In this document: positions 1-52,838 of the stretch, piece by piece
Layout: each line of letters begins with the position of its first letter
Numbering within the stretch: position 1 is the first letter of the stretch
From: an uncultured Candidatus Saccharibacteria bacterium
GTDB lineage: Bacteria > Patescibacteriota > Minisyncoccia > Phycocordibacterales > UBA918
DNA length: 64,000 bases
Reading direction: 5' to 3'
Assembly (NCBI GenBank): GCA_964350645.1
Contig: CAYGJY010000002.1
Coordinates: forward strand, 33,538-97,537
Notes under the pieces: model-generated
Told to the model about the DNA's origin: nothing
The model's input: only the letters and a program-made list of their open reading frames with translations
Database searches by the model: none
Made by a program: the position numbers and the translations under genes

Positions 1-996
1 CTGCCCCGTGAGATCAAGTGAACTTACATCGGCCAAGAGTAAGTGGTTGTCAGTTCCACCAGCCATCAAGCGCACACCAGCATCAAGAAACACTTTCTCC
101 ATCGCTTTGGCATTCTTCAAAATCTGCGTAGCATACTCTTTAAACTCAGGTTGCATCGCTTCATGAAACGCGACTGCCTTCGCACAAATAATGTGCATAT
201 GTGGACCACCCTGCATCCCGGGGAAGACGGCTTTATTAATTTTCTTCGCGATCTCAGCGTCTTCCCGCACCACGATCATGCCGCCGCGTGGACCGCGGAG
301 TGACTTGTGGGTCGTCATGGTCATGACATCAAAGCCGTAGTCAAATGGATTTTTCAGTACCCCGGCCGCAATCATCCCTGTCAGGTGAGCAACGTCAGCG
401 ACAGTGTACGCACCAACTTCTTTGGCGATCTCCACAAACTTCTCATAGTCAAGTTCTCGTGAGTACGCTGAGAAGCCCGCCAAGATAATCTTTGGTTTAT
501 GCTCAAGAGCCACTGCCCGCAGTTCTTCAAAGTCGATCTCACCAGTACTCGTGTCTTTCATCTTGTACCGGACAAAGTTGAAGACTTTATTGATAGCAGT
601 GGTCGGGTGACCATGGGTGAGGTGTCCACCGTGCGACAGATCCATACCAAGGACAGTGTCACCTGGTTCCATCAAGGCAAAATACATGGCGACGTTGGCC
701 GCTGCCCCTCCGAGTGGTTGCACGTTGGCGTATTTCCCTTTAAAAAGTTTGCACGCTCGCTCAATGGCGATTGTTTCCATCGCGTCAGTAAAATCCTGGC
801 CGCCATAGTAACGCTTCCCTGGATAGCCTTCTGAATATTTATTGGTGAAGACTGAACCGTTGGCTTCTCGCACCGCCATTGAAACGTAGTTTTCGCTCGG
901 GATAAGCTCAATCCCCTTTCGTTCTCGTTCTTCTTCTCCGACGAGCGTAGCGTAAATGTCTGGATCTTGGTCTTTGATGTAGTTGTATTCGTGCAT
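1..996 (-). CDS. glyA: serine hydroxymethyltransferase (GlyA). The 3' end is truncated by the window edge, so the protein lacks its C-terminus
   Basis: Reverse-strand translation of 1-996 reads MHEYNYIKDQDPDIYATLVGEEERERKGIELIPSENYVS...HLTHGHPT...TTHKSLRGPRGGMI. These are canonical SHMT motifs, including the PLP-lysine region. The ORF runs off the window start, so it is absent from the ORF track. Confidence 0.9.
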   Translation of the reverse strand, partial: MHEYNYIKDQDPDIYATLVGEEERERKGIELIPSENYVSMAVREANGSVFTNKYSEGYPGKRYYGGQDFTDAMETIAIERACKLFKGKYANVQPLGGAAANVAMYFALMEPGDTVLGMDLSHGGHLTHGHPTTAINKVFNFVRYKMKDTSTGEIDFEELRAVALEHKPKIILAGFSAYSRELDYEKFVEIAKEVGAYTVADVAHLTGMIAAGVLKNPFDYGFDVMTMTTHKSLRGPRGGMIVVREDAEIAKKINKAVFPGMQGGPHMHIICAKAVAFHEAMQPEFKEYATQILKNAKAMEKVFLDAGVRLMAGGTDNHLLLADVSSLDLTGQ

Positions 997-1069
997 GATA
1001 AAAATCATTAAGTGTATAAAGTATTCTGCTATCTACATCGTTACAACATAGTCAAAATAAAGAGTCTGG

Positions 1070-2689: not shown

Positions 2690-3538
2690 ATGGAAACACT
2701 CATCAATGGCTATGATATAGCGTATCAAAAAGCACTAAAAGACATCATGGAAAAAGGGATTCGCGAGGTCAACGAGCGTACCGGGCACGAAACCGCTACT
2801 TTGCCCGGCGTCAGCTTCAGCCTTGACCTTGAAACTGACGGTTTTCCGATGCTCTCACTGCGGAAAGTGCCAATCAAGATGTTTGTTGCTGAGCAAGTCT
2901 GGTTTATCGCTGGCTTACGCAAGCCGGCCGACTTCCTTCGTGAATACACCAAAATCTGGGATGATTTCACTAACCCAGGCGACACCGTGACTGTCGCTTA
3001 TGGCTACCGGTGGCGTCATCACTTCGGTCGTGATCAGCTCGGCGACTTGATCACCCTCCTCGAAAACGAACCAAGTTCTCGCCATGGCATCGTGCTGGCG
3101 TGGGACCCGGGCAGCGATGGTCTTGGCGGCACTAAACGCGCTAACGTACCTTGCCCGTTTGGTTTCTCCGTTAACATTGTGGGTGGTCGCCTTCATCTTC
3201 ATAACTTTGTACGCTCCAATGACATGATGCTTGGTAACCCCGCCGATGTCGCTGGCTTTGCGCTTCTGCAGTGTATCTTGGCTGAGCGACTTGGTGTTCG
3301 CCCTGGCATTTACACCCACTCAATCTCAAACGCGCACATCTACGATATTCACTACGAACAAGCCAAGGAGGTTATTAGTCGTACCAGCTCTCAAAAACCA
3401 ATTCATGTGAGCATTCCTGAAAGTGCGTTTGCTCGCGCTGAAGCCAAAGACGGCTCATTAGTTGAGGAAATCGCTGCCAGTATTGAAGACCAGTATGAAC
3501 CACAGGCCGCCATTAAAGGTTTAAAAATTGTTTTATAA
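2690..3538 (+). CDS. thymidylate synthase family enzyme (ThyA-like). Asp186 sits at the position of the invariant Asn177 of E. coli ThyA
   Basis: Aligns along its whole length to E. coli ThyA: ERTGHET/DRTGTGT, EQVWFIAG/ELLWFLQG, AYGYRWRHH/VYGKQWRAW, and catalytic VPC155. The motif MMLGNPADVAGFALL corresponds to VFLGLPFNIASYALL. Confidence 0.75.
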   Translation: METLINGYDIAYQKALKDIMEKGIREVNERTGHETATLPGVSFSLDLETDGFPMLSLRKVPIKMFVAEQVWFIAGLRKPADFLREYTKIWDDFTNPGDTVTVAYGYRWRHHFGRDQLGDLITLLENEPSSRHGIVLAWDPGSDGLGGTKRANVPCPFGFSVNIVGGRLHLHNFVRSNDMMLGNPADVAGFALLQCILAERLGVRPGIYTHSISNAHIYDIHYEQAKEVISRTSSQKPIHVSIPESAFARAEAKDGSLVEEIAASIEDQYEPQAAIKGLKIVL

Positions 3539-3543
3539 TTGTT

Positions 3544-4194
3544 ATGTCAGTTCTCACCAAAGACGAAATCCTTGACCGCATTGATAAAGGCGATATTGCC
3601 ATTGAACCATCTGTCGACCAGTTCCAAATCCAAGCCCACTCGGTTGATCTGCGACTCGGGTTCACCTTTATGCTCCCAAAACAATATGTGTTAACGCAAA
3701 AAGGCCGCGAAGCTCTGCAGATCGACCCTCTCTTAAACCACGGACCGGAATATTTCGATGTCATTGAACTTGAACAAGGTCAATATTTTGAACTACTTCC
3801 TGGTGAGCACGTCCTTGTCTCTAGTCTTGAAAATATTAAAGTCCCAAAAGACCTGATGGCGATTCTCTACCCTCGTTCATCGGTAAACCGTAAAGGGTTA
3901 TCAGTTGACCTAACTGGAATTATTGATTCTGGCTACGAAGGTGTCCTCACCCTCCCAGTACGCAACAATACGTCAGCGCAAATCATCCGCTTGTATCCGG
4001 GAGAACGTTTTTGCCAAGTAGTTTTTGAAGCTCTCACCCATGCAGTTGATGCTCGGCCCAGCCGTTGGCACAAGAAAGATGTCGTTGAAAAGGGTGAAAA
4101 AGAGATTGGTATTGAAATCGAATTGATTCGTGACGGAAAAATAAAAGAGCTCAAAACAGACTACAACGTAATGAAACCTACTGCCGATGTATAA
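3544..4194 (+). CDS. dcd: dCTP deaminase
   Basis: HSVDLRLG and PRSS...G motifs of the Dcd/dUTPase beta-barrel family. Confidence 0.8.
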   Translation: MSVLTKDEILDRIDKGDIAIEPSVDQFQIQAHSVDLRLGFTFMLPKQYVLTQKGREALQIDPLLNHGPEYFDVIELEQGQYFELLPGEHVLVSSLENIKVPKDLMAILYPRSSVNRKGLSVDLTGIIDSGYEGVLTLPVRNNTSAQIIRLYPGERFCQVVFEALTHAVDARPSRWHKKDVVEKGEKEIGIEIELIRDGKIKELKTDYNVMKPTADV

Positions 4195-4705
4195 AGAGAT
4201 ACCAGTTGTCATTGTGGCCGCAATGAGCCAGGAGCAACGAGTAATCGGTAAAGACAATGCCCTGCTCTGGGATTTGCCAGAAGATCGAGCACACTTTCGT
4301 GACGAAACCCGTGGCAAACCAGTTGTATTGGGGCGTAAGACCTTTGAGTCAATTCTGAGTATCTTAGGAAAGCCTTTACCCCAGCGGCCCAATATTGTCG
4401 TGACCAGAAATCGTGACTATCACACTGAGTACGATAATGTAACAATGGTTGAATCACTGGAAGCTGGACTCGAAGCGGCGGCAGCTACGCTGCCGCCTGA
4501 AATCCATATCGGTGGCGGTTCACAACTTTACGAAGTCGCCTTCCCGTACGTTGATGAGTTACGACTTACCTTAATTAATGACGAACCAAACGGTGATGCA
4601 TTTTTCCCAGACTACACTGCAGATTTTATCGAAACGGAACGCTCAGAACCTAAAACTGAAAACGGCATTTCCTACACATGGGTGACATTTACACGCGCTC
4701 ATTAA
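4187..4705 (+). CDS. folA: dihydrofolate reductase
   Basis: VVIVAAMSQEQRVIGKDNALLW, VVLGRKTFESI and GGGSQLY motifs. Overlaps the dcd stop by 8 nt. Confidence 0.85.
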   Translation: MYKEIPVVIVAAMSQEQRVIGKDNALLWDLPEDRAHFRDETRGKPVVLGRKTFESILSILGKPLPQRPNIVVTRNRDYHTEYDNVTMVESLEAGLEAAAATLPPEIHIGGGSQLYEVAFPYVDELRLTLINDEPNGDAFFPDYTADFIETERSEPKTENGISYTWVTFTRAH

Positions 4706-5504
4706 TTGCTTGATAAACGTGTATAAATTGCTTCGTAGCTGCAACATCATGGACTCGAAAAATATCGACTTGCGCTTTAAGCCCGGCTACCAGACTCGCC
4801 AACGAACCTGGTAACCGCTGGTCAGTCGGCACCTCCACACCCATAATCTTTTCAATAAACCTCTTACGCGACGTACCGAGAAGAGTTCGTGCCCCAAGAG
4901 TATTGAAACGCTCTAGATTCGTAAGCAGAGTAAGGTTATGTTCAAGCGTTTTACCGAAGCCAATTCCTACATCGACATAAATATTTTCTCTACTGAGGCC
5001 AGATGTCTCAATAGCAGCAATTCTCTCCTCCAAAAACGCATACACTTCTTCAATCACATCATCATACTGCGGGTGAGCTTGCATCGTACCAGGCTCGCCT
5101 TGCATATGCATCACACATACCGGGACCTGGGCAGCACTAGCTACTTCAAGCGCATCAGCTTCGCGAAGTGCCGCAACATCATTAATCATTGTTGCTCCAG
5201 CCTTAACTGCGTCTGTCATGACTGCAGCATGTCGACTATCGATTGAAATTGGAATGTCTGTTTCTTTACGCAATCCCTCAATCACCGGCAATACTCGACT
5301 TAATTCTTCACCAACAGCGACTTCTGCAGCTCCTGGCCGAGTGCTTTCGCCACCAATATCTACTATATCTGCTCCTTCAGCAATCAGTTGCAGTCCGTGA
5401 GCAATCGCTTTCTCGGTTTCTAGAAATTGCCCACCATCACTAAAACTGTTCGGTGTAACATTCACAATCCCCATAATCTTTGGTTGATACGCAGATTTAA
5501 TCAT
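4689..5504 (-). CDS. folP: dihydropteroate synthase
   Basis: IMGIVNVTPNSFSDGG and DIVDIGGESTRPG pterin-binding motifs. The start is taken at MIKSAYQ. Confidence 0.85.
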   Translation of the reverse strand: MIKSAYQPKIMGIVNVTPNSFSDGGQFLETEKAIAHGLQLIAEGADIVDIGGESTRPGAAEVAVGEELSRVLPVIEGLRKETDIPISIDSRHAAVMTDAVKAGATMINDVAALREADALEVASAAQVPVCVMHMQGEPGTMQAHPQYDDVIEEVYAFLEERIAAIETSGLSRENIYVDVGIGFGKTLEHNLTLLTNLERFNTLGARTLLGTSRKRFIEKIMGVEVPTDQRLPGSLASLVAGLKAQVDIFRVHDVAATKQFIHVYQAINERV

Positions 5505-6735
5505 CATTTTTTTTAATTGGTTGGTCAGCCACATTCGCCATATATTCATTGATATGTTTGCCTGTCATCGGATGACGCCACTCCGGATTAAGATCGTAGA
5601 GTGGCTGCAAGACAAAAGCTCTCTCAAACATCCGTGGATGAGGTACCGATAGAACATCACTGTGCAGAGCATATTCACCAAAGGTCAAAATATCAAGGTC
5701 TAAGACTCGTGGTGCATTTTGTACTGTGCGTACCCGACCAAATTCTTCTTCAATACTATGCAGTACTTTCAGAAGCTCATGTGCGGTCAACATGGTCGTA
5801 ACCTCAATCACTTGATTAAAATACCAAGGATCATCTGATACTGGGACTGGGGCGGTTTTGTATACTGGTGAGACAGCAATAACTTCAATCCTCTGCAAAC
5901 TAATTGCGGCAATCGCTTTTTTCAGTGTCTCTGCTGGAGTGCCAAATTTTGAATCAAGATTCGCTCCCAAACCAATATATGATCTGGTTTCTTTTTGCTC
6001 TTGGGGTGAGAGATGCCCTTCAAACAATACACGAAACATATCGTTCTGTGGTTCAATCAAAAACGAGTGCCGGCGATCAATATCTGTGAAACGAAGTCCT
6101 GGCACGTTGCGTGCAATCACCACTGGCTGACATTCAGCCACCTCACCCATAACCAGTGAAGCGCCCGCTGCAAGCGAATCAATCATATTACTTGATGACA
6201 CATGGATCTCTCTACCAAACAAATCTTTCTTACCTTTATGGAACTCAATTGGTTCTATCCCCCAAAATGCAATCGACACCCCCATACACCCAAACCGTAA
6301 TGGCGTTAAGTGACTATCAGTAATGATAACGCCAACATTTTTAAGGTTATGTTTGTCTTTAAGGTACTGCCAAATTTCTTTAGCTGCACCAAAAGCGTCT
6401 GCTGGCAGTAAAGAATAGTACCCAGCACTATTACTTTCATCAATTCCGGCTGACGCAAGGAAGGTATTGTACTTGATGGTCAGCGGGTATTTATAATATG
6501 AGCGATCAATCACGTGTTCAGCCTCTTCGGCTACCAGAGTGGCTTTATCGGTGCCTTCAATTGGTATACAGCGCCCTTGATGAATCGCGATTACCTTAGA
6601 GGATACTAAAACCACATCACCCTCTTCAACAATCGTAAGCGACTCATCAAGTACGGCAAAGAGGTCATCTTGCGGTGGCTGTAGTATACGGGTTTTGATT
6701 GGGATAAACTCCATGTTATTTACTTTTACGGACAA
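5497..6735 (-). CDS. fusion protein. The N-terminal domain is a CofE/F420-0:gamma-glutamyl ligase-like domain (FolC2-type dihydrofolate synthase candidate). The C-terminal domain is 6-hydroxymethyl-7,8-dihydropterin pyrophosphokinase (FolK)
   Basis: N-terminal motifs: DVVLVSSKVIAIHQGR, ASAGIDESNS, IITDSH...FG. C-terminal motifs: IGLGANLDS, RVLDLDILTFGE, PHPRMFERAFVLQPL. Confidence 0.7.
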   Translation of the reverse strand: MSVKVNNMEFIPIKTRILQPPQDDLFAVLDESLTIVEEGDVVLVSSKVIAIHQGRCIPIEGTDKATLVAEEAEHVIDRSYYKYPLTIKYNTFLASAGIDESNSAGYYSLLPADAFGAAKEIWQYLKDKHNLKNVGVIITDSHLTPLRFGCMGVSIAFWGIEPIEFHKGKKDLFGREIHVSSSNMIDSLAAGASLVMGEVAECQPVVIARNVPGLRFTDIDRRHSFLIEPQNDMFRVLFEGHLSPQEQKETRSYIGLGANLDSKFGTPAETLKKAIAAISLQRIEVIAVSPVYKTAPVPVSDDPWYFNQVIEVTTMLTAHELLKVLHSIEEEFGRVRTVQNAPRVLDLDILTFGEYALHSDVLSVPHPRMFERAFVLQPLYDLNPEWRHPMTGKHINEYMANVADQPIKKNDD

Positions 6736-7063
6736 CCGTAGCTACGACAGCGTTTTTCAATGCTGCAGGTTTTTGCACTTCTACTTCTACCCGTTGTACC
6801 TCACGATACTGCAAACAAAGATCTGCAATCGCATGGGCAAACGTTTCAATTAGATAGGGTTGTTTCTCTTCGGCATACTTCTCAATCATCATAGCGACTG
6901 CATCATAGTCGAAGGTAGTTTCAATGTCATCGTCGAGACTTGGCCGCGTGTGCTCAATAGTCAGATTCAACACCAGTGTCTGACGTTTGCTGCGCTCGAC
7001 ATCATAGACGCCAATCACTGGTTCAATGTTGAAGTTTGAAATGGTAATAGTGTGCAGTTCCAT
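6716..7063 (-). CDS. folB: dihydroneopterin aldolase
   Basis: IGVYDVERSKRQTLVLNLTIE pattern. Start at internal Met MELHTITI. Overlaps the folK start. Confidence 0.8.
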   Translation of the reverse strand: MELHTITISNFNIEPVIGVYDVERSKRQTLVLNLTIEHTRPSLDDDIETTFDYDAVAMMIEKYAEEKQPYLIETFAHAIADLCLQYREVQRVEVEVQKPAALKNAVVATVVRKSK

Positions 7064-7099
7064 AGTGTTATATGTATGGCCTTGAAAGTACCACACATC

Positions 7100-7130
7100 A
7101 AAAGCCGGCGCCATAGGCGCCGGCTTTTGC
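7100..7130. terminator. intrinsic terminator hairpin downstream of rplK (GCCGGCGCC-ATAG-GCGCCGGC followed by T-run). Palindromic and probably bidirectional
   Basis: Perfect 9-bp GC stem with a tetraloop and flanking A/T runs. Confidence 0.7.
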
Positions 7131-7145
7131 AAACGTGAGAAGTAA

Positions 7146-9397: not shown

Positions 9398-10369
9398 TTA
9401 TAATCCAAATCGAATAAATAGTCGCTCGATAAAAGAACGTGTGGTCGCTCCACACACCCGTTCAAATTCAAGAATATCGGCCTCGTCCAACACCAAAGGT
9501 TCAGACTGGGCTCCTAGGTACGCAAACAGTACTGCTGTTTCAGTTCCCACATGATCCAGGGACAGAGCATGACCAAGTTCATGTGTTAACAATAACTGTA
9601 ACGATGATTCATTTTGAAATTGATTGATATTAATTGTCCGGTCACGATAGTGCCCCGGCATAAATTCTTGTCTGCCAGCAAACGTATCGTTGTATACCGT
9701 ATTTTTTTGGTTGTACCGTTCGACCAAATCTTGTGATCGTTCACTAATTATATTTATTTGCTTACTCAAATTTCCTAACTGAGCATTAAGTGTATTTATA
9801 GCTGCCTGTTCCTCCTCCAGCCATTGTTGCTCTGTTTCTAAGGCGGCCAGTTCTTCCGGTGAGACTGTCCCAGCTGTTGAAAATACAGCCACCTTCTCAT
9901 CATAGGCATCAAGTCTTTGTAGATGTAGCGAGACTCGATTTTCATACTCAATCCCTAGATTCCTAAATTCAGCTTCCAGTTCTTGATACGTCTGGTCAAT
10001 AGCATCTTGCACACTGAGTGAGGCATCCAGCTTTTGCAACAATGTTTCTTGATCATCAATAAATGCTTGCTGCTCATCGTACACAAAGTTAATTTCAATT
10101 TCCCCCTCTGGCTGATACACAAAAATATCAGCTCCAATGCCTTGTTCCCACACACGTTCAGCATCAGCAATGGCGCTCAGAGCTTCTGTTTCAGATAAGC
10201 CAAAGCGCTCATCGATAAAGCCAATTCGATATGACAGCGGTAGCGCACAAACAGTTTGTGCCTCACGATACATATAAAAACTCGATCCTAAGATCGTGAT
10301 AATTAAAGCTATGGCAAACGGCATTCGCATAGGTATCATGATAGCAAAAAGCTTGCTTTTAAGCAGCAC
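9398..10369 (-). CDS. membrane-anchored metzincin-like zinc metalloprotease with a central coiled-coil
   Basis: HELGHALSLDH (HExxHxxGxxH) near the C-terminus. N-terminal TM helix. A long Q/E/L-rich heptad segment. Confidence 0.55.
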   Translation of the reverse strand: MLLKSKLFAIMIPMRMPFAIALIITILGSSFYMYREAQTVCALPLSYRIGFIDERFGLSETEALSAIADAERVWEQGIGADIFVYQPEGEIEINFVYDEQQAFIDDQETLLQKLDASLSVQDAIDQTYQELEAEFRNLGIEYENRVSLHLQRLDAYDEKVAVFSTAGTVSPEELAALETEQQWLEEEQAAINTLNAQLGNLSKQINIISERSQDLVERYNQKNTVYNDTFAGRQEFMPGHYRDRTININQFQNESSLQLLLTHELGHALSLDHVGTETAVLFAYLGAQSEPLVLDEADILEFERVCGATTRSFIERLFIRFGL

Positions 10370-10435
10370 TAAAGCAGTAGACTAGACAAAATAACTTCAA
10401 TAGATTATCTTCAGATATAGAAACGAAACCGGAGG

Positions 10436-10915
10436 ATGGTAATGACCTACGCAGCTGACCGTAAGCGTACTCGTCGCCATCTTTCTAGGATGGTAGGGCG
10501 TAGTAGAAAAGAAGTTCTTTCAGGAAGAAACCCTAGGCTCCATGGGATGCACGGCAACACTCGCGGCGACATCAATGAAAAAAGAGCGCTATCGACGCTT
10601 AAAAAAATCATTGATGACTTATCACCTGAAGCCCGCCGAGCCATTATTGATTTTTGGCAAGTGGCAAAAAATTCACCTCATGACCATTTCGGTTGGGATA
10701 TTATTATTGAAACTGACTTCGGATTGGTTGGTTTTCAAGTAAAAAGCTCTGCGAGTAGCAGACGAAGATTCCTCAAGACGGCACGCTATCAGGGAATCCC
10801 CTGCGTCGTTATAAACGATAAGACGAGCTGTGCTGAATGGCACAAACAAGTAAGCCAGGCATTCATCGCTTGTCTATTAGAACTCATAGAGCGGAAGAAG
10901 GGCCGCCAGACTTAA
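10436..10915 (+). CDS. hypothetical protein with an Arg-rich N-terminus and a possible PD-(D/E)xK-like motif
   Basis: GWDIIIETDFGLVGFQVKSS resembles a nuclease core strand pattern. There is no family assignment. Confidence 0.35.
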   Translation: MVMTYAADRKRTRRHLSRMVGRSRKEVLSGRNPRLHGMHGNTRGDINEKRALSTLKKIIDDLSPEARRAIIDFWQVAKNSPHDHFGWDIIIETDFGLVGFQVKSSASSRRRFLKTARYQGIPCVVINDKTSCAEWHKQVSQAFIACLLELIERKKGRQT

Positions 10916-10965
10916 TTGCATAATTGGTCTGTGCGGTTTTGTCTTTTTAAATACTACTCATACAA

Positions 10966-11000
10966 ACAAAAACGGCGTACCGAAAAGTACACCGTTTTGT
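10966..11000. terminator. intrinsic terminator between the hypothetical gene and nrdB
   Basis: ACGGCGTAC-CGAAAA-GTACACCGT stem followed by TTTTG. Confidence 0.55.
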
Positions 11001-11011
11001 ACAGGTGCTTA

Positions 11012-12019
11012 CTACCACTCAAGTGAACCAGAGTTCTGATACTCAGTCACTTTTGTTTCAAAGAAGTTCTTCTCTTTTGAAACATCCATGATCTCGCTCA
11101 TCCATGGGAATGGATTTTCTTTCATATAGAATTTTGGTAAACCAAGTCGTTCGAAACGCCGATCAGCGATAAACTCAACGTAGTCTTTCACCGCTTGCGG
11201 GTTGAGACCAAGGAAGCCGTTTGGCATTGCATCGTCAACGTAGTTTTGTTCGTGCACAACCGCTTCTTTAATCTTCTCGATAATGTCAGCCTGGAAGCTC
11301 TCAGTCCATGCGTCTGGGTTCTCAGACTTGATTGTGTTAATCAAATCAATTCCGAAAGCCAAGTGCACTGACTCATCACGCAAAATGTACTGGAACTGGT
11401 CACCAATTCCAACCATCTTGTTTTGACGTTTCATTGAGAGAATCATCGCAAAACCAGCATAGAAGAAGATTCCTTCCATGATCACATAGAAACCAATCAG
11501 ATCATGCATAAACTTCTGGATCCCCTCAGTTGAATCAGTCTTGAAGTTAGGGTCAAGCACTGACTGGGTGAAGTTAATTACAAAGTCATCTTTCGCCTTA
11601 ATCGACGGGATTGTCTCATACATGTTGTAAATCTCATCCGGATCAAGACCGAGTGAATCACAGCAGTAAATAAAGGTGTCAGTATGAATCGCTTCTTCAT
11701 ACGCCTGACGCAACATGTACTGGCGGCACTCAGGGTTGGTCACGTGGTTGTAGGCAGCCAAAACGATATTGTTGGCGGTCAGTGACTCAGCGGTAGAAAA
11801 GAAGCCAAGGTTCCACAAGATCATCCGGCGCTCGTCATCAGACAATGCCCCTGGTCCCTGCTTTTTCCACAGCTCGATGTCAAGCTGCATCGACACCTCT
11901 TCTGGTGTCCAGTTATTGTTGACTCCAGCTTTATAATGCTCACGCGCCCACTTATACCGCATCGGTAAAATTTTGTTTGGATCGGTCGTGCTGTTGTTGA
12001 TAATTCCTGATTTATTCAT
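11012..12019 (-). CDS. nrdB: ribonucleotide reductase class Ia small subunit
   Basis: Di-iron ligand motifs (EAIHTDTF, ESVHLAF) and the tyrosyl-radical region (FFYAGFAMI). Confidence 0.9.
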   Translation of the reverse strand: MNKSGIINNSTTDPNKILPMRYKWAREHYKAGVNNNWTPEEVSMQLDIELWKKQGPGALSDDERRMILWNLGFFSTAESLTANNIVLAAYNHVTNPECRQYMLRQAYEEAIHTDTFIYCCDSLGLDPDEIYNMYETIPSIKAKDDFVINFTQSVLDPNFKTDSTEGIQKFMHDLIGFYVIMEGIFFYAGFAMILSMKRQNKMVGIGDQFQYILRDESVHLAFGIDLINTIKSENPDAWTESFQADIIEKIKEAVVHEQNYVDDAMPNGFLGLNPQAVKDYVEFIADRRFERLGLPKFYMKENPFPWMSEIMDVSKEKNFFETKVTEYQNSGSLEW

Positions 12020-17350: not shown

Positions 17351-17845
17351 TTAAAATTTTAGTTTCGCTCCACGCAATAATTCAAAGCCGCGTTTCACAT
17401 TATTAAATTCAGGATCAGTCTCTCCTCCAATTGCTTCTCTAATTTCTTCATAATCAAGACCATCAAACCAGACAAATTCTGAGTGATCTTCTGGATTTAG
17501 TTTAATATTTTCCAGTGGCTCAGCTAGCCGAGCAAAGTACACCACTTCAATTGAGTGCGAACCCTTCAATTCGTTCTGATAATCAAACACTGCAAACGGA
17601 TCTCCTACCTGTATATCGACACCAAATTCCTCGCGTATCTCCCTCTTCAATCCTGCAACAACATTCTCACCATAATCAATATGCCCGCCAGGTAACTCTA
17701 ACTTATCTGGCAAAAACTTCTTCGTTGCTGCTCGTTTCGGCAAAAACACTTTTTCCGCCCCATCAAAATTATGGTGAATAAAAGCACAGGCAGTAATCAC
17801 CTGTTGTCCTTCTTTTGGAACTTCGCTATCGTGAGATACTTTCAT
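17351..17845 (-). CDS. NUDIX hydrolase
   Basis: Nudix box GGHIDYGENVVAGLKREIREEFGV (GX5EX7REUXEEXGU). Confidence 0.8.
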   Translation of the reverse strand: MKVSHDSEVPKEGQQVITACAFIHHNFDGAEKVFLPKRAATKKFLPDKLELPGGHIDYGENVVAGLKREIREEFGVDIQVGDPFAVFDYQNELKGSHSIEVVYFARLAEPLENIKLNPEDHSEFVWFDGLDYEEIREAIGGETDPEFNNVKRGFELLRGAKLKF

Positions 17846-24161: not shown

Positions 24162-26110
24162 TTGCGAAAATCGCCCAGATTGTCTCCCCCTACCGAGACG
24201 TTTGGACTGTTATACTTGATAGATGAAGCCGTGGCAGACGATAACGAAAAAAACCTCTCTATCAGTGGTGTGTTGCTGATAACTTTAATTGGCGGCGGCT
24301 GGTTTTTCTTGCCCCAACCAACTCCGCCGCTTCCCTTGCCTGATAACCCTGATTACTTAAACGCTACCCTACCGACCGAGACGCGCGTAGCCAGTCTTTT
24401 TTCATACATGACCCTTGAGGAGAAAATTGGGCAAATGGCGTTGGTTGAAAAAAATAGTCTCAAAGAATTAGGTGACATCAGTGGCTACCGGCTAGGCGCC
24501 CTCTTAAGCGGCTCGGGAGCTAAACCAGAAGAAAATACCCCAGCAGGCTGGAAGAAAATGACCGACGCATTCCAAGCTGAGGCAACACAATCTCGGCTAG
24601 GTATTCCTCTGCTCTATGGTTCAGACGCAATTCATGGACACGCCCACGTTCCGGGAGCAACTATTTTCCCGCATATGATCGGGCTTGGTGCCACTGGTGA
24701 TCCAGAATTGGTACGGAAAATTGCAGCCGCCACTGCTGAAGACATGTTGGCCACCGGAGTGAATTGGAACTTTGCTCCCAACCTAGACACGCCGCAAGAT
24801 ATTCGCTGGGGTCGCGTATATGAAACATTCTCTGATGACCCAGCCTTGGTGGCAAAACTAGGCGTAGCCTATATAGAAGGATTACAATCGTATGCTGACT
24901 CTCAAATACTAGCCACCCCAAAGCATTTTATCGGGCTTGGCGGCATGCGTTGGGACACATCCCTAAATGAAAACTTTACAATCGACCAAGGCGTCACCCC
25001 AGCTGACGAAAAGATACTAGAAGAGGTATACTTGCCCCCATTTGCCGCTGCCGTCGATGCTGGGGCTTTAAGCATTATGGTTGGACTCAACACCTGGGGT
25101 AATACGAAAACAGTTCGACAAAAGTATCTCCTAACCGACGTACTCAAAAACCAACTTGAATTCCAAGGGTTGTAGTTTCTGACTGGTACGGGGTTCACGA
25201 AGGAGCCCGAAGCAATTTTTGGGCTACGATATCAGCGATTAATGCAGGCGTAGATATGGTCATGCTGCCGTTTGATTATGAGAAGTTCACTCGCCATATG
25301 TTGTGGGCCAATCGACTTGGCTTGATATCTGATGAACGCATCGATGATGCGGTGCGTAGAATTTTATACGCGAAGTTTTCACGTGGTTTATTTGATACTG
25401 ACGATAACAACCAGCAAATCTCTGAGACCTCAAATCAAACACACCAAAAATTAGCCCGTGATGCCGTAGCAGCATCTCTCGTTCTTATAAAAAATGAAGC
25501 TGCCCTACTACCAAGAAAAGGTACCGCCAAGAAAATTCGAGTAGCTGGAAGTGCCGCTGATAATGTCGGTAAACAGCTTGGGGCGTGGAGCATCGAGTGG
25601 CAAGGGGTTGACGGCAACTGGCCCCCAAACTCAACCTCGATTCTCGCTGGTATCAAAGAAGTAGCCGGGAAAAATACCCTCATTGAATTTGACGCTGCTG
25701 GGAAATTTTTAGGAAATACAACAAAAGCAGATGTCGGCATTGCTGTGGTCGGTGAATCCCCCTATGCCGAAGGTTGGGGGGACAACCCAAACCCTACCCT
25801 CAGTGAAGAGGATATAACCGCGATAAAAAATCTCCGGGACACCAGCCGCACTGTTATAGTCATTTTAGTGACGGGACGACCCCTCATCATTACTGATGAG
25901 ATTAGCGACTGGGACGCCCTTGTGGTTGCTTGGTTACCCGGCAGTGAGGGGGCTGGTGTGGCTGATGTCCTGTTTGGTAAAAAAGCATTTTCAGGAACCC
26001 TGCCTTTACCGTGGCCAGCAAACATAAAACAATTATCAATTTCTACAACTGGGAAAACCAATGATGGTAGCGACGTGCTTTTCCCTCGATATTTTGGCCT
26101 CAAATACTAA
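24162..26110 (+). pseudogene. glycoside hydrolase family 3 (BglX/NagZ-like) split by a single-base frameshift near 25160-25175 into ORFs 24162-25175 and 25256-26110
   Basis: ORF1 carries the GH3 N-domain (KHFIGLGG, GIPLLYGSDAIHG). ORF1 ends LKNQLEFQGL*. The +2 frame continues as VVSDWYGVHEGARSNFWATISAINAGVDMVMLP, which is the conserved GH3 continuation. ORF2 carries the GH3 C-domain. One missing base restores ...GLVVSDW. Confidence 0.7.
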
Positions 26111-37755: not shown

Positions 37756-38208
37756 CTATTTTTTGTCAACCATTTCTAAATACTCATCAGCACTGCGTAA
37801 GACCGCCCGACTCTTTTCATGAGTAAGGCGATCCAACGCTTCTTTCAAAGTAAACCAACCCCCTTCATGCACTTCGGTACTATCGAGTGTGTATGCATGA
37901 CTGGCCGCTGCCCCCACAAAGTACGAAACGGTTTTTTTAATAAGTACTTCTTCGTGAACAAATTCATAACTCACATCAAATGTCACAGTGTTGTTGAGTG
38001 ACTCAAGAATCAATTGGGTTTCTTCTTGCAGTTCGCGAAGAGCGGCCTGCTCTGGAGTCTCTCCCACGTCCAGGTGACCCTTGGGAAACCCCCAATACGA
38101 ATCGCCCCGCCACTGACTAAACTGATGAATCAAAAAATACTCACGAATTCCCGTCACGCGTTTAGCATACGGAATCACACCATATGATTGGTCAGTTTTT
38201 ATTTTCAT
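37756..38208 (-). CDS. NUDIX hydrolase
   Basis: Nudix box GFPKGHLDVGETPEQAALRELQEETQL. Confidence 0.8.
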   Translation of the reverse strand: MKIKTDQSYGVIPYAKRVTGIREYFLIHQFSQWRGDSYWGFPKGHLDVGETPEQAALRELQEETQLILESLNNTVTFDVSYEFVHEEVLIKKTVSYFVGAAASHAYTLDSTEVHEGGWFTLKEALDRLTHEKSRAVLRSADEYLEMVDKK

Positions 38209-38794
38209 ACATATATAGCGACGGAAGGTTCGTGAGTTCTTCTAAAGACTTAACCCGATCCATAACTCTCGACGGATACCCACGCGTAATTGGATCTAGC
38301 CTCATTTTGACAAAATCATCAAACGAATACCGTATAACTTCAATCTCTTCACCATCATCGAGTTGTTGCGGAACAATCTGATCGAGTTCTGTCGCTAGAA
38401 AAGTATAAATAATCCGCTCGACTTTCTTGCTGTCTTGGTATGCATCAATCAACTTCCACTCTTTAAACTGGTAGCCGGTTTCTTCTCGCAATTCTCTCTT
38501 GGCGGCAGTCAGCTCATCTTCATCTGCATGGTCGTGCATACCAGCCGGGATCCCTAAAAAATAATCAGTATGCGGCTGTCGCTCTTTTGAGACTAGAATT
38601 GTATCTTCGTGAATCCCAATAATCTCTACCGTATCGGGACGCTTAAGCATTTCAAATATCTTCGTAGAACCATCAAACATTTTTTGTGGCCACTGGTACG
38701 TATCAAAAATCTGGCCAGCAAATACCCTCTCGGCCAGCTCTGGGATTACAACAGCATTTGGTGGTGTGTAGCTTCTCATGGATTGAGTATACAT
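38192..38794 (-). CDS. NUDIX hydrolase (ADP-ribose pyrophosphatase-like)
   Basis: Nudix box GIPAGMHDHADEDELTAAKRELREETG. Confidence 0.75.
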   Translation of the reverse strand: MYTQSMRSYTPPNAVVIPELAERVFAGQIFDTYQWPQKMFDGSTKIFEMLKRPDTVEIIGIHEDTILVSKERQPHTDYFLGIPAGMHDHADEDELTAAKRELREETGYQFKEWKLIDAYQDSKKVERIIYTFLATELDQIVPQQLDDGEEIEVIRYSFDDFVKMRLDPITRGYPSRVMDRVKSLEELTNLPSLYMYENKN

Positions 38795-42614: not shown

Positions 42615-42962
42615 CTACATCTCGCTATAGCGTGCAGGATTATTTTTTGCCAATGCGACAGGATATTTGGCTTCGTTTTTGTTCATCTTTTCCTGTAAGG
42701 CTAAGGCGAGGTCTATTTGGTAATGATTCGAAATTTTAATCAACCAATAAAAAACATCAGCTAATTCGCTTGGAAGTTGTTCGAGTCGGTCTGGCATGAT
42801 GTCGTTATCTGTACTCCATTGAAACAACTCGAGAAGTTCGTTAGCCTCGACACTCAGTGATAAGGCCATATTTTTAGGAGTATGGAACTGTTGCCAGTTA
42901 CGATCTATACCATATTGCAATATGCGTTGTTCTAGTTCATTAAATAATTGAGAATCTTTCAT
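42615..42962 (-). CDS. MazG-like nucleotide pyrophosphohydrolase (second copy)
   Basis: FHTPKNMALSLSVEANELLELFQW and DVFYWL motifs of the MazG/YpjD NTP-PPase family. Confidence 0.75.
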   Translation of the reverse strand: MKDSQLFNELEQRILQYGIDRNWQQFHTPKNMALSLSVEANELLELFQWSTDNDIMPDRLEQLPSELADVFYWLIKISNHYQIDLALALQEKMNKNEAKYPVALAKNNPARYSEM

Positions 42963-51482: not shown

Positions 51483-52838
51483 TTGATTATGTGGTCTGCC
51501 CGAACTCTCCTCTGGCCAAGACCACCTCCGAAGCCGTATACTAAAACCATTATGGGAACGATTTTATATTGGATCAAACGCTGTATTCCGGGACCTGTCT
51601 TGGATGTTGTTCGTCCACCATATCATTTGGCGCTCGCCTACATTGGAGCAGCCTGGTACCGTCACCCCTCTAAAGAACTCACGGTGATTGCAGTCACTGG
51701 TACTAAAGGCAAATCAACGGTTACTGAGTTGATCCGTACAATTCTTGAAGCTGACGGTAAAAATGTTGCTTCGCTCTCAACTATTCAATTCAAAACTGGC
51801 GATACAACTGAACGAAATTTGTACAAAATGACTCTCCCTGGTCGTTTCTTTCTGCAGCGATTTTTGCGCGACGCAGTCACTGCTGGCTGCACTTATGCCG
51901 TAGTTGAAATGACCTCAGAAGGGGCTAAACAGTATCGCCACAAATTTGTACACCTGGATGCGCTGGTCTTTACTAATCTTACTCCTGAACACATCGAATC
52001 CCACGGCTCGTTTGAAAATTACAAAAATGCTAAGTTGGCGATTGCAAAACAGTTAAAAGCTTCTGGCAAACAACCTCGCTATATCGTCGCTAATACCGAC
52101 AACGAACACGGCGTTGATTTTCTCAATATCGAGGTTGAGGAGAAGCTACCGTACGGTTTAAAGTCACTCAAGTTACATACATTGCACAAAGACGGCATTA
52201 GTCTAATTTTTACTGCTAACCAAGAAGAAGTGACTATCCGGGTACCTTTGGTCGGTCTCTTCAATGTCTACAACACCCTCGCAGCAATCACCCTCACACA
52301 AGCAATGGGGGTCTCACTCAAAACAATCGAAACTGCCCTACGAGCACTGTCTCCGATCAAGGGTCGCGTGGAACACTTTTATTCACCAAGCAGTGCCACC
52401 AAACAAGTTACAGCTATCGTTGATTACGCTCATACCCCTGATTCACTCGAACAACTTTACAAAGCTTTTAAAGACGTTCCGAAGGTTGGTATCCTTGGAA
52501 ACACCGGCGGCGGACGCGATACGTGGAAGCGGCCAGAAATGGCGGCGATTGCGGAACGCTATTGTGACTTTATTATTCTTACCAATGAAGACCCCTATGA
52601 TGAGAACCCCCATAAAATTGTCGAGGACATGGCTAAGGGCATCGAGGATAAAAGTAAGTTAGAAATTATTATGGATCGCCGCGCAGCTATCGCAGCTGCC
52701 CTCCAGAAATGTCCAAGTGGTGGCTACGTACTCATCTCCGGCAAAGGGACTGACCCCTATATCATGGGGCCCCATAATTCACGGCAACCGTGGAGTGACG
52801 CTGAGGTAGTGCAAGAGGAATTAGCGAAACTTTCATAA
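51483..52838 (+). CDS. Mur ligase family protein (MurE-like)
   Basis: VIAVTGTKGKSTVTELI P-loop, TNLTPEHIESHGSFENY, and a C-terminal Mur ligase domain. Confidence 0.7.
   Translation: MIMWSARTLLWPRPPPKPYTKTIMGTILYWIKRCIPGPVLDVVRPPYHLALAYIGAAWYRHPSKELTVIAVTGTKGKSTVTELIRTILEADGKNVASLSTIQFKTGDTTERNLYKMTLPGRFFLQRFLRDAVTAGCTYAVVEMTSEGAKQYRHKFVHLDALVFTNLTPEHIESHGSFENYKNAKLAIAKQLKASGKQPRYIVANTDNEHGVDFLNIEVEEKLPYGLKSLKLHTLHKDGISLIFTANQEEVTIRVPLVGLFNVYNTLAAITLTQAMGVSLKTIETALRALSPIKGRVEHFYSPSSATKQVTAIVDYAHTPDSLEQLYKAFKDVPKVGILGNTGGGRDTWKRPEMAAIAERYCDFIILTNEDPYDENPHKIVEDMAKGIEDKSKLEIIMDRRAAIAAALQKCPSGGYVLISGKGTDPYIMGPHNSRQPWSDAEVVQEELAKLS

Follow-up and report, generated by a model that had tools for sequence, protein, structure and literature searches.

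The window analysed here, a 64,000-nucleotide stretch of contig CAYGJY010000002.1 from an uncultured Candidatus Saccharibacteria bacterium, carries a gene (folC2~folK) in which a CofE-fold glutamate ligase domain of the FolC2 type is fused in frame to a complete HPPK (FolK) domain. Judged from sequence comparisons, the fusion is probably (at roughly 80%) a bifunctional enzyme of folate synthesis that arose from one fusion event within the candidate phyla radiation (CPR). The domain architecture is previously undescribed and very narrowly distributed; its parts belong to two known enzyme families and a known pathway, and neither new chemistry nor a new kind of system is involved. For the enzymatic activities, the nucleotide used, the dimerisation and the fitness benefit of the fusion, the account given below is one that we infer.

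The mechanically defined open reading frame (ORF) runs on the minus strand from 5497 to 6735 and encodes 412 residues, reaching back to a TTG at 6735. The first-pass annotation had described a 412-residue ORF with two domains, and the ORF was found as described, with all six of the motifs quoted there present in its translation, but its start should be revised. The true start is likely the ATG at 6714, which gives a protein of 405 rather than 412 residues beginning with MEFIPIKT, because the folB stop codon (TAA, 6718-6716) ends 1 nt ahead of it, leaving a gap of 1 nt between the two genes, because the database protein P0001 and all relatives begin at MEFIPIKT or MQFIPIKT, and because a start at the TTG would overlap folB. 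P0001 (405 residues) is 100% identical to the window protein, and the window contains no Ns. An AlphaFold model of the fusion had a mean pLDDT of 86 and a pTM of 0.80, and a Foldseek search with this model found no PDB entry covering both halves. Domain borders (residues 1-235, 236-245 and 246-405) are given in the 405-residue numbering, whereas the Pfam residue ranges below follow the 412-residue ORF.

The ligase and HPPK domains

Both Pfam profiles were matched over their full lengths, with the F420_ligase match spanning residues 13-210 (E 4.3e-35) and the HPPK match residues 253-384 (E 3.2e-35). The predicted fold agreed with the profile searches, so that the original assignment of a CofE-type fold followed by HPPK holds for both domains. 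The best NCBIfam model for the N-terminal domain was TIGR04132, 'putative folate metabolism gamma-glutamate ligase', with 181.2 bits. The CofE models scored lower, with 116.0 bits for TIGR01916 and 118.4 bits for NF009809, and their equivalog cutoffs (180.65 and 274, respectively) were missed. The same ranking was obtained for the six CPR relatives tested, with 149-205 bits for TIGR04132 and 103-135 for CofE.

Solved relatives of the N-terminal domain were limited to structures of Archaeoglobus fulgidus CofE (E about 1e-19). The predicted fold of this domain, for which pLDDT was mostly above 90, matched CofE (7ULD) with a Foldseek TM of 0.79. In the HMMER alignment, the metal and nucleotide ligands D109, D150/T151 and E208 of A. 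fulgidus CofE pair with D, D-S and E, and the corresponding positions D92, D133, S134 and E191 were invariant across 120 homologues. These ligands are conserved throughout the superfamily, CofE included. The deazaflavin of CofE is contacted by F92, by G153-C155 and by R234 of the partner subunit (PMC10861534). None of these contacts is conserved in the window domain: F92 is replaced by L and GRC by LTP, and no alignment was obtained around R234. Retained ligands together with changed deazaflavin contacts would fit the same chemistry performed on another acceptor substrate. CofE was reported to begin by acylating a non-glutamyl carboxylate, after which it lengthens a gamma-glutamyl chain (PMC10861534); by analogy, these two reaction types may correspond to the pair of dihydrofolate synthase (DHFS) and folylpolyglutamate synthase (FPGS) reactions.

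A true CofE with F420-0 or some other non-folate cofactor as its substrate, placed among folate genes by coincidence, is a very improbable identity for the N-terminal domain. The PF01996 match, the nearest solved structures and the naming of homologues as F420 ligases in some sources would agree with such an enzyme, but the folate-type model outscores the CofE models, whose cutoffs are missed, and the deazaflavin-contact residues are lost. Furthermore, the scan of about 50 ORFs across the 64-kb window returned no F420 biosynthesis gene (nor folE or pab genes), and several independent arrangements join ligases of this family to folate enzymes, by fusion or by clustering of the genes.

No Mur-ligase domain was detected in the fusion protein by the Pfam scan. 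The ligase domain lies outside the canonical FolC (TIGR01499) family and would be a non-orthologous replacement of FolC. In Chlamydia trachomatis, CT611 (FolC2, COG1478) lies in a folate cluster and complements an Escherichia coli folC mutant (PMC1971073; PMC4161248), and the substitution of FolC by a FolC2 paralogue in Chlamydia, which the first-pass annotation had mentioned, is thus documented. The function of FolC2 has so far been shown by complementation only, with CT611 (PMC1971073). The N-terminus of the window protein, MEFIPIKT, resembles the MEITPIKT of CT611 over the 8 residues that could be deduced from a published cloning primer, and the comparison with CT611 covers this N-terminus only. 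A primer-based contig search for CT611 gave no match, and no recognisable Chlamydia sequence was present among the 395 proteins retrieved.

At the C-terminus lies an ordinary HPPK domain, predicted to be active from its intact catalytic residues. It passed the TIGR01498 cutoff (124.1 bits against 54.1), was 34-41% identical to solved HPPKs, and its predicted fold matched the E. coli and Staphylococcus aureus enzymes with a Foldseek TM of 0.85. In the alignment, residues R82, R92, D95, D97, H115, R121, N55 and F123 of E. coli FolK are all kept. A direct transfer of the domain out of Alphaproteobacteria, to which the named top matches (Dongia, Kiloniella, Rhodospirillales) pointed, is not supported, as the tree places the fused domains beside unfused CPR folK.

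Two fused relatives showed changes in the HPPK catalytic site: P0004 reads IIALDIL, with A at the position of E. coli D95, and P0003 reads SKCLDLD, with R92 replaced by C. Errors in sequencing, or an HPPK function in decay, may explain these changes. One domain of the fusion might accordingly be catalytically dead and have a role in structure or regulation, such as scaffolding FolP, and the lack of FolK activity of the Chlamydia FolKP fusion in E. coli (PMC4161248) would be in line with this. We regard such a role as quite improbable for the window protein, in which all of the HPPK catalytic residues checked and all of the CofE metal ligands are intact; in addition, neither the window nor the fused loci yielded a second HPPK.

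Recurrence and origin of the fusion

The identical fusion was present on contigs from four sequencing runs (ERR3534979/85/62/77). Diverged versions were found in SRR33375180 (75% identity), SRR32608980 (68%), SRR33375177/83 (64%) and an ENA contig (64%). In all, the fusion was recovered from at least 9 independent sequencing runs or assemblies and forms five diverged sequence clusters with 64-100% identity. The five fused proteins have linkers of different sequence and length, and the frame is always kept. In the three diverged versions with readable context, a set that does not include the 64% ENA contig, folB and folP flank the fusion in every case.

Because independent assemblies carry the same fusion, an assembly error or a missing stop between the domains, which the first-pass annotation had named as a possible explanation, is excluded. 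The genes of related contigs do overlap out of frame, and a 1-nt error there could mimic a fusion. That the single ORF is such an artefact, whether a sequencing frameshift or a misassembly joining two genes, is nevertheless extremely improbable given at least 9 independent contigs in five diverged clusters whose differing linkers are still in frame.

The fusion is rare. In a HMMER search run exhaustively over 1.84 billion representatives clustered at 50% identity, exactly one cluster matched both domains, and all other matches were single-domain. No full-length match to the fusion was found among 185,579 GTDB species genomes, a set which excludes the window's own genome (it is not a species representative). 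The nearest single-domain relatives in GTDB were metagenome-assembled genomes (MAGs) of Kaiserbacteria, Paceibacteria, Parcubacteria and Saccharibacteria. A literature search found no paper on a FolC2-FolK fusion or on CPR FolC2 proteins. Together with the single 50%-identity cluster, this bears out the earlier impression that the fusion was uncharacterised.

One long match, on L017 (CAZLVV010000012.1, a MAG labelled Gammaproteobacteria), was rejected as a fusion: it consists of two tandem FolC2-like paralogues of 245 and 236 residues (9989-10726 and 10723-11433), which overlap by 4 nt. No folate genes lie near this pair, and the neighbouring genes cast doubt on the Gammaproteobacteria label.

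The likely precursor of the fused gene was seen on two CPR contigs, L020 and L022, where folC2 and folK are individual genes in this order and the ATG of folK falls within the stop of folC2, giving an 8-nt overlap out of frame (ATGCTTAA and ATGAATAA). The ATGnnTAA form of this overlap recurs, at 831-838 in L020 and 661-668 in L022 between folC2 and folK, and at 5497-5504 in the window between folK and folP. The downstream order of L020 is that of the window (folP, folA, dcd, thyA, dCMP deaminase, tmk, mazG, glyA), and its Dcd and ThyA share 81-84% identity with those of the window. Neighbour joining placed the HPPK domains of the five fusions in one monophyletic group in 197/200 bootstraps, with unfused CPR folK as their sisters. 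Because of this monophyly and of the unfused, overlapping state in L020 and L022, a single fusion event from an overlapping pair is indicated, and the simplest account of the sequences would be one small frameshifting change in such a pair.

The ligase domain behaves differently. It is 43% identical to the ligases of L020 and L022 and 59-64% identical to the standalone type, over the whole length up to the junction. This discordance might mean either that the junction is a recombination point, at which a native folC2 met an incoming folK-folP block, or that the lineages evolved at unequal rates. Standalone ligases are very common in Parcubacteria, with thousands of matches at 53-64% identity, and adjoin folA, thyA and glyA in CPR genomes; the closest of them (59-64% identity) hold the same chromosomal slot as the fusion, between L11 and folA.

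The ligase family was also met in other fusions. P0154 (453 residues, metagenomic) joins a FolC2-like ligase to a RibD_C/DHFR-like domain. This partner is of a folate-pathway type but differs from HPPK, and P0154, which is not close to the window protein, is an independent Rosetta stone linking the ligase family to folate. In P0186 (373 residues, metagenomic), a FolC2-like ligase is fused to a cytidylyltransferase-like domain of the FAD-synthetase type.

Proposed role in folate synthesis

In the proposed scheme, the HPPK domain would use ATP to convert 6-hydroxymethyl-7,8-dihydropterin into the pterin pyrophosphate that is the substrate of FolP. The ligase domain would be a nucleotide- and metal-dependent gamma-glutamyl ligase that takes the place of a FolC of the Mur-ligase type, joining L-glutamate to dihydropteroate (the DHFS step) and probably further glutamates to reduced folates (the FPGS step). 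The two activities would thus flank the FolP step, and the folP gene follows with an 8-nt overlap. This overlap may couple the translation of the fusion with that of folP, whose start is itself only probable; with folB included, three translationally coupled genes would yield their products in fixed proportion. A single event in a small CPR clade of Parcubacteria-like bacteria would have created the fusion from an out-of-frame folC2-folK pair of the ATGnnTAA type, the frames having been merged at the overlap through a small frameshifting indel or through recombination.

Several observations weigh against this reading. The curated TIGR04132 cutoff of 350 bits was missed by the N-terminal domain (181.2 bits) and also by the six CPR relatives; the CPR proteins are therefore a clade of their own that stands closer to FolC2 than CofE does, and are not proven equivalogs. 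The sequences do not establish that the window ligase and the Chlamydia enzyme are orthologues, and a DHFS/FPGS role across CPR FolC2-like proteins is proposed by analogy. In the ligase-domain tree, strict monophyly of the fusions was obtained in 20/200 bootstraps, and the standalone P0006 nests with them. At the loci of most close standalone relatives, matches to FolB, HPPK and FolP were lacking within 8-10 kb, so that the ancestral role of the ligase may have been polyglutamylation of salvaged folate only. Finally, folE and the genes for p-aminobenzoate (pABA) were not found in the window, and a canonical folC could lie beyond the 64 kb of genome in view.

Alternatively, the ligase might be an FPGS only, serving folate retention and salvage as in relatives without folK and folP, with DHFS activity supplied by a canonical FolC outside the window and the fusion being an accident of gene packing. 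The genome was inspected over 64 kb, and the closest standalone homologues (59-64%) lie near folA, thyA and glyA without FolB, HPPK or FolP nearby, both of which would suit an FPGS. We consider this unlikely, however: folB and folP accompany the fusion at every fused locus with readable context, the unfused folC2-folK-folP order recurs in L020 and L022, and no folC was found in the window. Moreover, FolC2 is the sole FolC replacement in the de novo pathway of Chlamydia (PMC1971073; PMC4161248), and the chemistry of CofE already includes acylation of a non-glutamyl carboxylate (PMC10861534).

The first-pass annotation had also proposed that a DHFS-HPPK enzyme would complete the pterin branch. 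The gene does lie between folB and folP, but DHFS does not belong to the pterin branch, and, as folE and pABA genes were missing from the window, completeness of the pathway cannot be claimed.

A more far-reaching arrangement can be imagined. CofE-type ligases are dimers with active sites within the dimer interface. A FolC2~HPPK dimer would place two HPPKs near the pterin end of the ligase sites and, with coupled FolP, might form a channel from HPPK through dihydropteroate synthase (DHPS) to DHFS that shields the labile pterin pyrophosphate and dihydropteroate, the unfused middle enzyme being bracketed by the fused pair. As a corollary, thousands of Parcubacteria 'F420 ligase' genes would be folate glutamate ligases, amounting to a replacement of FolC on the scale of a phylum. 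We hold this extension to be doubtful.

As a bifunctional folate enzyme, the fusion would be a natural Rosetta stone tying CPR CofE-like proteins, which many sources annotate as F420-0:gamma-glutamyl ligases, to folate synthesis. It would support the replacement of FolC by FolC2-type enzymes well outside Chlamydia, and would correct metabolic reconstructions which credit such organisms with F420 or score DHFS/FPGS as missing. The folB, folC2~folK and folP genes would make a compact construct of about 2.4 kb for FolC2 biochemistry, and the locus appears to record how two genes that overlapped out of frame became one.

Among known systems, C. trachomatis CT611 is likewise a CofE-fold ligase in a folate cluster (folB, folKP, folA), in a small genome without a Mur-ligase FolC, and TIGR04132 is the best model for the window domain; CT611 is a standalone protein, whereas Chlamydia fuses folK and folP instead. 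A. fulgidus CofE (PDB 2PHN/7ULD) shares the fold (TM 0.79) and the metal ligands with the N-terminal domain at about 28-33% identity. The window domain is shorter, with deletions around CofE residues 50-95, its deazaflavin-binding residues are changed, and its gene context is folate rather than F420. Mycobacterium tuberculosis FbiB also has an extra domain C-terminal to a CofE domain, but this is nitroreductase-like and not HPPK.

Fusions are common in the folate pathway (PMC1971073). HPPK is often a partner, as in HPPK-DHPS (Francisella, Chlamydia, plants), in the fusion of dihydroneopterin aldolase (DHNA) with HPPK (Streptococcus pneumoniae SulD, PDB 2CG8) and in DHNA-HPPK-DHPS (yeast Fol1). 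These listed fusions join consecutive steps, whereas the window fusion skips DHPS and links HPPK to the step after it; its partner, unlike theirs, is a CofE-fold ligase, with HPPK C-terminal to it. The L020 and L022 clusters share the folC2-folK-folP order and the downstream synteny with the window and differ in having two genes with the 8-nt out-of-frame overlap.

The folate locus and other features of the window

The gene order on the minus strand is L11, folB, the fusion and folP, followed by the convergent folA, dcd and thyA (Table 1). Past thyA lie genes for dCMP deaminase, tmk, mazG and glyA. Thymidylate synthase is a consumer of folate, with dihydrofolate as product. The folP ORF has 286 residues and reaches back to 5549; M16 is the probable start, judged from relatives of 259-271 residues.

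Table 1. Coordinates of the fusion gene, its parts and the neighbouring genes in the window.
Feature	Position	Strand	Remarks
folC2~folK fusion gene	5497..6714	-	405 aa + stop; identical to P0001
FolC2-type (CofE-fold, PF01996) glutamate-ligase domain	6010..6714	-	residues 1-235
Inter-domain linker SPQEQKETRS	5980..6009	-	residues 236-245; from alignment
HPPK (FolK) domain	5500..5979	-	residues 246-405
Overlap of fusion stop and probable folP start, ATGATTAA	5497..5504	-	8 nt
folB, dihydroneopterin aldolase	6716..7132	-	gene callers: 132 aa, about 6716-7114; Pfam/NCBIfam
folP, dihydropteroate synthase	4689..5504	-	Pterin_bind 1.9e-82; TIGR01496 319.8 bits
folA, dihydrofolate reductase	4187..4705	+	DHFR_1 1.7e-44; convergent with folP, overlapping
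dcd, dCTP deaminase	3544..4194	+	Pfam
thyA, thymidylate synthase	2690..3538	+	Pfam
glyA (serine hydroxymethyltransferase, SHMT), truncated at window edge	1..1010	-	344-aa open frame; synteny with L001

The absence of a canonical folC from the window, stated in the first-pass annotation, was confirmed. The sole Mur-ligase ORF (51483-52838, plus strand) was considered as a candidate folC and rejected as MurE, since the MurE model scored 329.5 bits against 37.5 for FolC, and a PDB search agreed. This ORF contains Mur_ligase_M and Mur_ligase_C without a Pfam match to the N-terminal Mur-ligase domain, and its N-terminal 45 residues, counted from a TTG start, look over-extended.

Three NUDIX hydrolase genes were found on the minus strand (17351-17845, 37756-38208 and 38192-38794), one of which could perform the FolQ step (dihydroneopterin triphosphate (DHNTP) pyrophosphatase). 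In the relative L005, a NUDIX gene lies between folP and folA. Two MazG-like genes are present on the minus strand (1070-1417 and 42615-42962). A scan of the locus for promoters and terminators yielded no excess of matches over shuffled sequence.

Compared with window positions 2690-4194, the loci L008-L010, L014 and L018 of related Parcubacteria have the same outer synteny and another type of ThyA (26-29% identity, 320-338 residues). Their dCTP deaminase also differs, and these genes are in the opposite orientation, which suggests that the folA-dcd-thyA block was replaced whole in one of the lineages.

Elsewhere in the window, the N- and C-terminal domains of a glycoside hydrolase of family 3 lie on consecutive plus-strand ORFs (24162-25175 and 25256-26110), suggesting a split gene or a frameshift. 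The ORF of ribosomal protein L19 (39908-40576, minus strand) encodes 222 residues, with the L19 domain at residues 43-135 and an unusually long C-terminal extension. In the greedy ORF set, TAA occurs as stop codon 41 times, TAG 30 times and TGA, which is rare, 6 times. Across the whole window there is a strong coding bias towards the minus strand, and the GC skew is negative throughout.

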